Source of the DNA: Candidatus Omnitrophota bacterium | Lineage (GTDB): Bacteria; Omnitrophota; Gorgyraeia; 2-01-FULL-45-10 | Direction of reading: 5' to 3' | DNA length: 64,000 nucleotides | Assembly (NCBI GenBank): GCA_017993955.1 | Contig: JAGOLR010000004.1 | Coordinates: 3,601-67,600 of the forward strand | Part shown: piece after piece, positions 15,696-16,588 of the stretch | How positions within the stretch are numbered: position 1 is the first letter of the stretch | Layout of the letters: the number at the start of each line of letters is the position of its first letter | Made by a program: the position numbers and the translations under genes | Notes under the pieces: model-generated | What the model saw: only the letters and a program-made list of their open reading frames with translations | What the model was told of the DNA's origin: nothing | Databases searched by the model: none

Positions 15696-15801
15696 GCTCG
15701 CAGAGCTCGCTTCGGACCGGCCAAATTTCTGTCGGCCAGAGGCCTATTCCTCCTATTCGTCGGCGAAATTTGGCTTCGAGTCCCGATTGGGTCGCTACCA
15801 A

Positions 15802-15836
15802 TAAAAACGCCCATAGATTAACTATGGGCGTTTTCT
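15802..15836 (-). terminator. Hairpin plus U-run immediately downstream of the tRNA-Asn 3' end
   Basis: AAAACGCCCATAGATTAACTATGGGCGTTTT forms a perfect 9-bp stem with flanking A/T runs on both strands. Confidence 0.6.
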
Positions 15837-15881
15837 ACAGTGGCTCCCCCGCGAGGACTCGAACCTCGGACACTCTGGTTA

Positions 15882-16471
15882 CGATCTGACTCCGATTACT
15901 CGGAGAGTCGGACTATACCATTGCCATATTCTTTGAGATTGCTTCGTCGGCCTGACAGCCTTCTTGCAATGACAACAGAACTTAGGCAGCGAGTCTCTAG
16001 TCTCTGCACCTTTCCCACGATTGGTGGGGCTTGGCTCAGGATTGACCTGATCTCTCAGGCTTTCCCTGAATTTACTCGCTTTTCACTCTGGCGTTTCTAC
16101 CAGAGGCTGCTAACTGAGCGTGAAGCTCTCGATGACAATTGGCACATATCAACATGCATTTATCGAGCTCATTCTTAACCGTATCCCAGCTTCTGGTATA
16201 GCCTTTCGCAGAAATACCAAACTTTTTGCCGGTTAAATTGTTATGATGAAACTCCAACGCATCGAGACAGCGATTGTAACCACATATTTCGCATTTGCCG
16301 CCTTTATACTCGACTGCCATTTGCCGGACTTCCTTTCTCCGGGCATGGACAGCGCGTACAAGATACTGACGCCTATCGCTGTACTTGCGCTTTTCTTTTC
16401 CTGCCAATTGTCACCTCCTTCTTCCCGCTGGCACGTGCCGAGTTTTGCACTCGGCACTTCGTGCCTCGTGC
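15882..16471 (-). mobile_element. Group I intron (~590 nt) in the anticodon loop of tRNA-Asn, with an embedded HNH ORF
   Basis: The exon ends in U before the splice site, the intron begins with G, and the intron ends with G (omega-G). An R-like element CAGAGACTAG (plus 15997-16006) and an S-like element GGTATAGTCCG (plus ~15906-15916) can form P7 (GACTA/TAGTC). A P9 hairpin GACTCCG-AGTAAT-CGGAGTC sits just before the terminal G. Confidence 0.7.
16072..16407 (-). CDS. HNH homing endonuclease encoded inside the tRNA intron
   Basis: CEICGYN...LEFHHNN...CANCHRELH is a classic HNH/His-Me finger with two Cys pairs. TTG start preceded by AAGGAGGTGA at SD spacing; an alternative ATG lies at 16320. 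Confidence 0.75.
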   Translation of the reverse strand: MAGKEKRKYSDRRQYLVRAVHARRKEVRQMAVEYKGGKCEICGYNRCLDALEFHHNNLTGKKFGISAKGYTRSWDTVKNELDKCMLICANCHRELHAQLAASGRNARVKSE

Positions 16472-16588
16472 ACAGCCAGATGCTCTACCGACTGAGCTAC
16501 AGGGGAGTGTGTATAAAGAGCGAAAAATCTGTGATGATGATAGCATAGGGGAGGGGCTTTTTCAATTATTTTTTCCCTATACAGGCTT

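Follow-up and report, generated by a model that had tools for sequence, protein, structure and literature searches.

The questions raised by this locus are which tRNA gene it holds, what interrupts that gene, and whether the interruption is a functional and mobile element. The locus lies in a stretch of 64,000 nt from a Candidatus Omnitrophota bacterium (contig JAGOLR010000004.1 of assembly GCA_017993955.1, positions 3,601 to 67,600; this whole stretch is called the window below, and coordinates without a locus number refer to it). With default settings of ARAGORN, no tRNA gene was found in the 64-kb window. A sequence-only reading made earlier had proposed a tRNA-Asn(GUU) gene carrying a group I intron with an internal HNH endonuclease gene, and every structural element of that proposal was found to hold. 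We consider it very probable that the locus is an intact and functional tRNA-Asn(GUU) gene, the anticodon of which is split between positions 35 and 36 by a self-splicing group I intron; the HNH protein of this intron is most likely a homing endonuclease. The split gene is the sole tRNA gene of the window and consists of the following parts:

16472..16506, minus strand: 5′ exon of tRNA-Asn, with the acceptor 5′ strand, the D arm, the anticodon stem 5′ strand and the loop bases C32 U33 G34 U35.
15882..16471, minus strand: group I intron of 590 nt with G16471 as first and omega-G 15882 as last base, based on Rfam RF00028, covariation and its exact absence from locus L108 (see below).
15841..15881, minus strand: 3′ exon of tRNA-Asn, with U36 A37 A38, the anticodon stem 3′ strand, the variable loop, the T arm, the acceptor 3′ strand, G73 and an encoded CCA.

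When exon 1 (16506..16472, 35 nt, TCCCCTGTAGCTCAGTCGGTAGAGCATCTGGCTGT) was joined to exon 2 (15881..15841, 41 nt with the CCA counted in, TAACCAGAGTGTCCGAGGTTCGAGTCCTCGCGGGGGAGCCA), ARAGORN returned a tRNA-Asn(gtt) of 76 nt with four regular stems, the anticodon loop CUGUUAA and the D-loop AGUCGGUA. Thus, the exon coordinates, stems, loop and 590-nt gap given in the sequence-only reading were all correct, as judged by strand reading and ARAGORN. An intron-tolerant tRNA search, which had been suggested as a check, did detect the gene, and its isotype was misread: the intron mode of ARAGORN (-i) reported tRNA-Thr(cgt) i(34,590), with the boundary off by 2 nt. This call corresponds to an alternative in which a tRNA-Thr(CGU) gene would carry the intron at 33/34, and ARAGORN likewise named tRNA-Thr for 43 of the 80 intron-containing tRNAs that it called in related loci. 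We regard this alternative as effectively refuted. The shifted boundary would end the intron in U instead of G, the tRNA body has a U1-A72 pair and G73, and the exons are identical at 76/76 positions to uninterrupted tRNA-Asn genes. Besides, the same 2-nt mis-call by ARAGORN and tFind was described for homologous introns, where sequencing of the spliced products confirmed the 35/36 position (PMC13011429).

The tRNA-Asn reading was further supported by the guide sequence of the intron:

16105..16114, minus strand: internal guide GUUA/GCAGCC, intron nt 358-367.

The guide sits 360 nt into the intron. Its GCAGCC part pairs with the exon end GGCUGU to form the paired region P1 (6/6 pairs, with a U35·G wobble at the splice site), and its GUUA part pairs with the start of the 3′ exon, UAAC, to form P10 (4/4 pairs). 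It thus matches the junction GGCUGU/UAAC and not the junction shifted towards tRNA-Thr, and a guide with 10/10 pairs anywhere in the intron was obtained in only 287 of 20,000 shuffles. When boundaries within ±4 nt of the ARAGORN call were compared, with a 7-nt loop kept, only CUGU/G...G/UAACC gave both a U at position -1 and a terminal G. The claimed U as last base of the 5′ exon and G at both ends of the intron were all present. From the P1 and P10 pairing it follows that the anticodon is GUU and that the insertion lies at 35/36, and the claimed insertion between positions 35 and 36 is upheld by this pairing together with the test for U(-1) and omega-G. The arrangement was found to be conserved: 78 of 84 related loci parse as CUGU/...G/UAA, 72 of 76 other related loci have a guide with 6/6 P1 pairs in the corresponding position, immediately in front of P2, and in locus L048 an exon GACUGU is accompanied by a guide GUAGUU, which is a compensatory change. 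A local helix across the splice site (GCUG-U-GCAC with GUGCCAGC) was also considered as P1 and rejected; U35 has no partner in it, and the helix is not kept in homologues.

A covariance-model match to group I introns, named earlier as a check, was obtained. Rfam RF00028 (Intron_gpI) matched 16132..15889 on the minus strand over the full model (positions 1-253) with 71 bits (E 5.3e-16) compared to a gathering score of 50 bits, and this was the sole Rfam hit in the window at the gathering threshold. Intron_gpI was also found at or above the gathering score in loci L001-L004, L046, L053 and L119; L001 stems from SRR11088414, a sample in which the organism is present. Energy-only folding of 16114..15882 recovered P2, P3, P4, P5, P6a, P8 and P9 (-78 kcal/mol, z -3.5). 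P6 and the P7 pseudoknot were added to this fold by hand, giving a model of 51 pairs in 10 helices (P2-P9), which was evaluated on 26 homologous cores aligned with MAFFT. Standard pairs occupied 91.0% of the cells, compared to 74.7% in shuffles and 29-46% when the 3′ partners were slid by 1-3 columns. Changes on both sides were seen in 31 of the 51 pairs (27.2 in shuffles), and the number of doubly changed cells was 249 compared to 86 ± 9 in shuffles; the observed covariation score was reached by none of 500 shuffles. Covariation was heavy in P2, P5, P6, P6a, P8 and P9, and P4 was invariant. The core of the window intron is made up as follows:

16086..16105, minus strand: P2 hairpin CUCUGGU-AGAAAC-GCCAGAG with GAAA in its loop; 7/7 pairs changed on both sides, 97.8% of cells paired.
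16074..16080, minus strand: P3 5′ strand AGCGAGU, with its partner at 15988-15994; compensatory changes in 3/7 pairs.
16008..16069, minus strand: P4-P5-P6-P6a (UCAGGG/UCCUGA, GCCUG/CAGGU, GCC/GGU and CCCAC/GUGGG); P4 invariant, and P5, P6 and P6a covarying.
15988..16002, minus strand: P7 5′ strand GACUA (16002-15998), joining segment J7/3 GAG (3 nt) and P3 3′ strand ACUCGCU (15994-15988).
15923..15987, minus strand: P8 with a CCUAAG...UAUGG motif and a 45-nt distal extension; the three closing pairs are 100% paired and two of them covary.
15911..15915, minus strand: P7 3′ strand UAGUC; 100% paired, with one pair changed from A-U to U-A in 11/26 cores.
15890..15905, minus strand: P9 hairpin CUCCGA-GUAA-UCGGAG with a GNRA loop; 5/6 pairs with compensatory changes, 100% of cells paired.

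The P7 pairing GACUA/UAGUC proposed in the sequence-only reading proved to be real, as shown by the A-U to U-A change in 11 of the 26 homologues. For P9, the earlier proposal was right in placing a hairpin near the end of the intron and wrong in its pairing: GACUCCG-AGUAAU-CGGAGUC does not fit, and the hairpin is CUCCGA-GUAA-UCGGAG. Nor does it stand immediately before the terminal G as claimed, since it spans 15905..15890 and ends 7 nt before G15882. No extra hairpin was found between P7 and the P3 3′ strand of the window core, where only the 3 nt GAG are present. The CCUAAG...UAUGG motif in P8 is what we take to be an 11-nt GAAA-tetraloop receptor.

The part of the intron between the 5′ splice site and the guide is filled by an open reading frame (ORF) with its own ribosome-binding site:

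16072..16407, minus strand: ORF of an HNH endonuclease, 111 aa, TTG start, inside the P1 loop (5′ splice site to guide).
16414..16418, minus strand: Shine-Dalgarno GGAGG within AAGGAGGUGA, 6 nt before the TTG start.
16430..16465, minus strand: stable hairpin GGCAC..GUGCCGAG-loop-CUCGGCAC..GUGCC where the P1 loop begins, upstream of the Shine-Dalgarno (-32 kcal/mol, z -2.8).

The claimed HNH motif CxxC...HH...CxxCH and the Shine-Dalgarno were both present (ORF 16407..16072 and AAGGAGGUGA), and the context AGGAGGTGACAATTGG around the Shine-Dalgarno recurs in many homologues; at the place of the 16430..16465 hairpin, homologues have a hairpin of other sequence. The ORF had been placed in a peripheral loop upstream of the R element. 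Its location is not as simple as this: the ORF takes up the P1 loop and at its 3′ end runs into the guide, P2 and the P3 5′ strand. The last 14 codons (QLAASGRNARVKSE before the stop) serve at once as P10/P1 guide, P2, J2/3 and P3 5′ strand (CAG UUA GCA GCC UCU GGU AGA AAC GCC AGA GUG AAA AGC GAG UAA). In the stop codon UAA, U forms the last base of P3 and both A's fall in J3/4, and the invariant Ala-Ala of the protein alignment (A100 and A101) corresponds to the guide GCAGCC. An alignment of 25 homologues contained 42 invariant columns; C39, C42, H54, H55, C88, C91 and H92 were invariant and H96 was nearly so. In profile searches, the protein matched the PHROG HNH families phrog_2255 (E 1.7e-26) and phrog_3106 (E 3.1e-26), and McrA (6ghc) in PDB (E 8e-4).

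The TTG start was favoured over the ATG at M30, because the N-terminal 29 aa are conserved in homologues. One gene caller used the ATG at M30, which gave an 82-aa protein (P0035). Only as this unnamed 82-aa call without an accession was the ORF found in the protein collection, in which the neighbours carry accessions of the type MBP70554xx, and the deposited record seems to hold no named product for the ORF. The lack of an accession for P0035 suggests that the deposited annotation probably contains neither the endonuclease nor the tRNA-Asn gene.

Close relatives of the HNH protein formed at least 1,863 clusters. The best 120 of these were 68-84% identical, apart from one 100% fragment, and the named relatives among the clusters were from Omnitrophota, Saganbacteria or NPL-UPA2. 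In a scan with one genome per species, relatives were found in at least 556 species genomes. The best 80 of these were mostly Omnitrophota, and the other labels included Patescibacteria, Melainabacteria, Nitrospirota, Elusimicrobia, Bacteroidota, Acidobacteria and Aerophobetes, among others; in these 80 genomes, the HNH gene was nearly always located in or beside an intron-interrupted tRNA-Asn gene. Two complete chromosomes of Omnitrophota (CP070807.1 and CP070684.1) also contain the element. The same HNH family at the same place in the P1 loop was found with two forms of the core. In the long form (L017, L035, L069, L070, L073, L075, L076, L078, L080, L081, L084 and others), P7 and the P3 3′ strand are separated by an insertion of about 37-40 nt, which was a hairpin in the copies inspected; the short form (3-5 nt) was found in the window and in most Omnitrophota copies. 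L046 also has a long segment between P7 and P3 3′, and this span measures about 27-40 nt or more in loci such as L017, L046, L069, L070 and L078.

Intron-minus alleles, which the sequence-only reading had proposed to look for in related genomes, were found in metagenomes. A scan for the spliced junction gave 33 loci, three of which (L088, L108 and L117) contain an uninterrupted tRNA-Asn gene matching the predicted spliced product at 76/76 positions; the 5′ exon is thus 35/35 identical to these genes. L108 (1-1087, Ga0182021_10863940) was found to be syntenic with the window, as its flanks align to 16573-16472 (81%) and to 15881-15674 (85%). The alignment breaks exactly between 16472 and 15881, so that exactly the 590-nt intron is missing. 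The identical intron-less tRNA genes and the synteny of L108 show that the exons in the window are not degenerate and that the presence of the intron varies at an orthologous locus.

Further tRNA-Asn-like sequences were noted among these loci. A second, partial tRNA-Asn 5′ half of 29-33 nt is present in L117 (710-738) and L115 (49-81), a few hundred bases from the intact intron-less tRNA-Asn gene, and may represent either a remnant or a further gene that is interrupted. In L107 (436-463) and L109 (632-659), only the 3′ part of about 55 nt of tRNA-Asn is present with unrelated sequence before it, a pattern as would be expected for attachment-site duplications of elements integrated in tRNA-Asn.

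The occurrence of more than one tRNA-Asn-like sequence close together in some relatives (L117 and L115) would fit a decaying gene, that is, a tRNA pseudogene with a dead ribozyme, asparagine being decoded by another copy. Decay is very improbable in the window copy, as every core helix is intact and fits the covariation-supported consensus, the exons are identical to those of intron-less alleles, and the ORF contains no frameshift or premature stop and has kept all 42 invariant residues. In addition, the gene is flanked by a promoter-like site and a terminator hairpin:

16537..16565, minus strand: promoter-like site of the sigma-70 type (TTGAAA-17-TATCAT, extended by TG), which precedes the tRNA 5′ end by about 31 nt.
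15801..15834, minus strand: hairpin AAAACGCCCAUAG-UUAAU-CUAUGGGCGUUUU with a U-rich tract after it (-24.3 kcal/mol, z -7.3).

The promoter-like site (16565..16537) is a consensus match only, with 10/12 positions, and 1.2 such sites per region were found in shuffles. The hairpin and U-tract at 15834..15801 are likely to be the intrinsic terminator of the tRNA transcript. A terminator consensus scan of the region gave no call in spite of the strong hairpin and U-tract, probably because the A-U extension of the stem uses up the U-run.

The preferred reading of an intact, intron-bearing tRNA-Asn gene can be compared with known tRNA introns. The GAAA in the P2 loop (L2), the 11-nt receptor motif in P8 and the GNRA loop of P9 (L9, GUAA) recall subgroup IC3 introns such as that of Azoarcus and may make contacts of the L2-P8 and L9-P5 type. 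The window intron resembles IC3 introns in its compact anticodon-loop core and in lacking a helix between P7 and P3 3′, and its P4-P6-P7 sequences (UCAGGGAAA...CAAUCCUGAGCCAAGCC...GGAAGGUGCAGAGACU) are nearly identical to those of the Nostoc IC3 intron. In contrast, the IC3 introns of tRNA genes are found in another tRNA and at another site, i.e., in cyanobacterial and plastid tRNA-Leu(UAA) at 34/35 and in Azoarcus tRNA-Ile(CAU) and Agrobacterium tRNA-Arg(CCU) at 36/37, and they are mostly ORF-less. When the core was aligned pairwise to the IC3 intron of Nostoc and to the IA introns of Patescibacteria, the scores were similar and the subgroups were not told apart.

The sequence-only reading had regarded a tRNA-Asn intron at this unusual site as new, and this did not stand up. 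The class is credited in PMC13011429 as first listed, under the name Asn.4Ug, by Williams 2020 (bioRxiv 10.1101/2020.01.27.920355), and its splicing was shown by Nakagawa et al. (mSystems 2026, PMC13011429; preprint July 2025), who reported that introns of tRNA-Asn and of tRNA-Asp at 35/36 from Patescibacteria self-splice precisely in vitro. In that study, guanosine-dependent splicing was obtained for two homologous 35/36 introns, the splice junctions were sequenced, an omega-G mutant was included as control, and ARAGORN and tFind were reported to mis-call the hosts of these introns as tRNA-Thr. Among 4,934 complete genomes, tRNA introns encoding a homing endonuclease gene (HEG) were rare (12 of 333), and four of these 12 were in tRNA-Asn with an HNH gene (PMC13011429). 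HNH-bearing 35/36 introns were found in Patescibacteria only, in these complete genomes, and the authors thought that drafts might reveal more; 25 of the 28 introns at 35/36 were assigned to subgroup IA, and no tRNA intron of Patescibacteria was classed as IC (PMC13011429).

The Patescibacteria Asn introns and the window intron are alike in the tRNA-Asn(GUU) host, the 35/36 site, the GCAGCY directly followed by P2, and the UGAAAA-type J2/3 (PMC13011429). The HNH-bearing ones also share the same HNH family (...EYKGGKC..CGY..C..ALEFHH...CANCH...), its place in the P1 loop and an ORF that reads through the guide; three such sequences are fully listed (GCA_016699425.1, GCA_000503835.1 and GCA_001029735.1; Table S3, PMC13011429). 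The GCA_016700035.1 intron, for which splicing was shown, is an ORF-less version of the same 5′ arrangement (UAAAG-GCAGCC-P2-UGAAAA; PMC13011429). The same HNH family, the same place in the P1 loop and the GCAGCY with P2 in Table S3 make the window element a member of the published family. It differs from the Patescibacteria introns in its host phylum, Omnitrophota, and in the CCUAAG/UAUGG receptor motif carried by its P8. A search of the literature on Omnitrophica combined with tRNA group I introns gave no result. HEG-bearing tRNA introns of cyanobacteria, with a PD-(D/E)XK gene in tRNA-fMet at 33/34 and a LAGLIDADG gene in tRNA-Arg(CCU) at 36/37 (PMC13011429), resemble the window element in combining an anticodon-loop group I intron with a HEG and differ in endonuclease superfamily, tRNA and site.

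Relatives of the HNH protein were also found outside introns. In viral contigs from IMG/VR (L118-L197), HNH relatives with 46-68% identity were present as free-standing genes within arrays of tRNA genes. In 48 of 80 viral loci, an uninterrupted tRNA-Asn(GUU) gene was located within 200 nt of the HNH gene, and in 43 of the 80 it was the nearest tRNA gene; only 72 of the 472 tRNAs in those loci are tRNA-Asn. HNH and tRNA-Asn genes are adjacent in cultured phages as well, namely Bacillus phage Bastille (L198, NC_018856.1 4996-7662) and Aeromonas phage LAh_6 (L199, NC_048774.1), and one viral contig (L119) was found to contain the intron-borne form. In L053 (1496-2294, Omnitrophica bin-199), a free-standing HNH gene is located just upstream of a tRNA-Asn gene with an ORF-less group I intron (312 nt, Rfam 61 bits), and in L046 (1023-1790, a Saccharicenans metagenome-assembled genome) just downstream of such a gene (251 nt, Rfam 74 bits). 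This arrangement suggests a possible route for the capture of the endonuclease by an intron. Thus, the HNH gene was found in three arrangements: beside an intron-less phage tRNA-Asn gene, beside a tRNA-Asn gene with an ORF-less intron (L046 and L053), and inside the P1 loop (the window and most genomes examined). With somewhat more doubt than belief, we propose that this HNH lineage is a tRNA-Asn-specific endonuclease and that its three arrangements and two cores may form a natural series of endonuclease-intron merger, with phages as vehicles across phyla. A similar free-standing situation is known from phage T4, in which SegB is a free-standing homing endonuclease of the GIY-YIG type in a tRNA gene cluster (PMC2330249) and mobE is an HNH gene mobilizing a neighbouring intron in trans (PMC2790892). 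The likeness applies to the HNH genes beside tRNA-Asn in phages, L046 and L053; unlike these T4 genes, the window gene is inside the intron, and SegB is a GIY-YIG enzyme.

Some other features of the viral loci were noted. The intron mode of ARAGORN gave tRNA-Asn genes with candidate introns of 194 and 206 nt beside a free-standing HNH gene in L127 (1999-2267) and L128 (869-1149), respectively; the L127 candidate had no Rfam group I match at the gathering threshold. The abiF RNA motif (RF03085, 47-54 bits, cut-off 37) was found in the phage tRNA arrays, directly upstream of tRNA-Arg in L177 (1180-1216), L190 (1061-1097) and L191 (771-807) and beside tRNA genes in L165 (947-983). In the Bastille record, two annotated tRNA-Asn genes flank the HNH gene, and only the upstream one was confirmed by ARAGORN; the downstream one of 68 nt (D307_gt002, L198:1623-1690) may be a fragment or a degenerate copy.

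Several observations weigh against the preferred reading of a self-splicing intron with a homing endonuclease. The last C of the guide (16105) doubles as the first base of P2, and therefore P1 or P2 must be one pair shorter than drawn. Only 3 nt (GAG) separate P7 from P3 3′ in the window, compared to a hairpin of about 37-40 nt in the published Asn introns (IA), those spliced in experiments among them; the IA-type architecture of the 35/36 introns with this extra hairpin is not shared by the window intron. For the protein, there was no match in NCBIfam and, at default E, none in Pfam; in a Pfam search at E up to 10, HNH (PF01844) was sub-threshold (14.1 vs 21.4 bits). Where McrA has the central Asn of its H-N-H motif, the aligned residue of the window protein is Lys83. 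The AlphaFold model was of moderate confidence (predicted local distance difference test score 71.8), with a strand-strand-helix around the motif. Foldseek of this model against PDB gave nothing significant (best E 0.12); its top neighbours, none of them significant, were all HNH nucleases (Cap5, T4 endonuclease VII, ZRANB3 and Cas9).

The sub-threshold Pfam score and the loss of the motif Asn would agree with an intron that splices and an HNH protein that is no longer a homing endonuclease, being inactive or having another role such as a splicing aid, with the element inherited vertically; the overlap with the ribozyme alone could keep the 3′ end of the ORF conserved. We consider this unlikely. 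The N-terminal two thirds of the protein, outside the ribozyme overlap, also contain invariant positions, and no change was seen in the catalytic HH, in either CxxC pair or in the final H among the 25 homologues. Relatives with 60-84% identity in many phyla and intron-less alleles of the same tRNA at the orthologous locus also speak against this alternative. Moreover, the free-standing relatives beside phage tRNA-Asn genes, including those of the cultured phages Bastille and LAh_6, form the pattern expected of an endonuclease that targets tRNA-Asn.

For the homing intron favoured here, the following mechanism is proposed on the basis of the observed anatomy, covarying core, P1/P10 complementarity, intron-less orthologous allele and HNH family membership. 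Transcription would probably run from the promoter-like site at 16565..16537 to the hairpin and U-tract at 15834..15801 and give a precursor of about 700 nt. P1 would close over 360 nt, and guanosine would attack after U35. Omega-G15882 would then occupy the G-binding site in P7 instead of the free guanosine, P10 would line up the 3′ exon, and ligation would restore the anticodon loop CUGUUAA; self-splicing of the window copy is predicted here from its sequence. The HNH protein would be translated from the precursor or from the excised intron, and its most likely action is to nick or cut, close to the insertion site, tRNA-Asn genes that have no intron, after which repair would copy the intron in (homing). 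This putative activity and target are deduced from family and gene context, and the highly conserved anticodon arm would be a good target across phyla. Since the last 14 codons double as guide, P2 and one half of P3, translation and ribozyme folding should exclude each other on any one transcript, a conflict expected from the overlap of the two reading layers.

A self-splicing intron in a tRNA anticodon loop with a homing endonuclease is a textbook concept. What is added here is the Omnitrophota host, the spread of relatives over many phyla (at least 556 species genomes), a core without the published extra hairpin, and the link to phages; together, these additions are of modest value. Since standard tools miss the gene or name it tRNA-Thr, Omnitrophota and many uncultured phyla will appear to be without tRNA-Asn, and this apparent loss distorts completeness estimates and anticodon inventories. 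The published view that HNH-bearing introns at 35/36 are a speciality of Patescibacteria with limited horizontal transfer was drawn from complete genomes only. The presence of relatives in at least 556 genomes together with intron-less alleles at the same locus argues for an actively mobile and widespread element.

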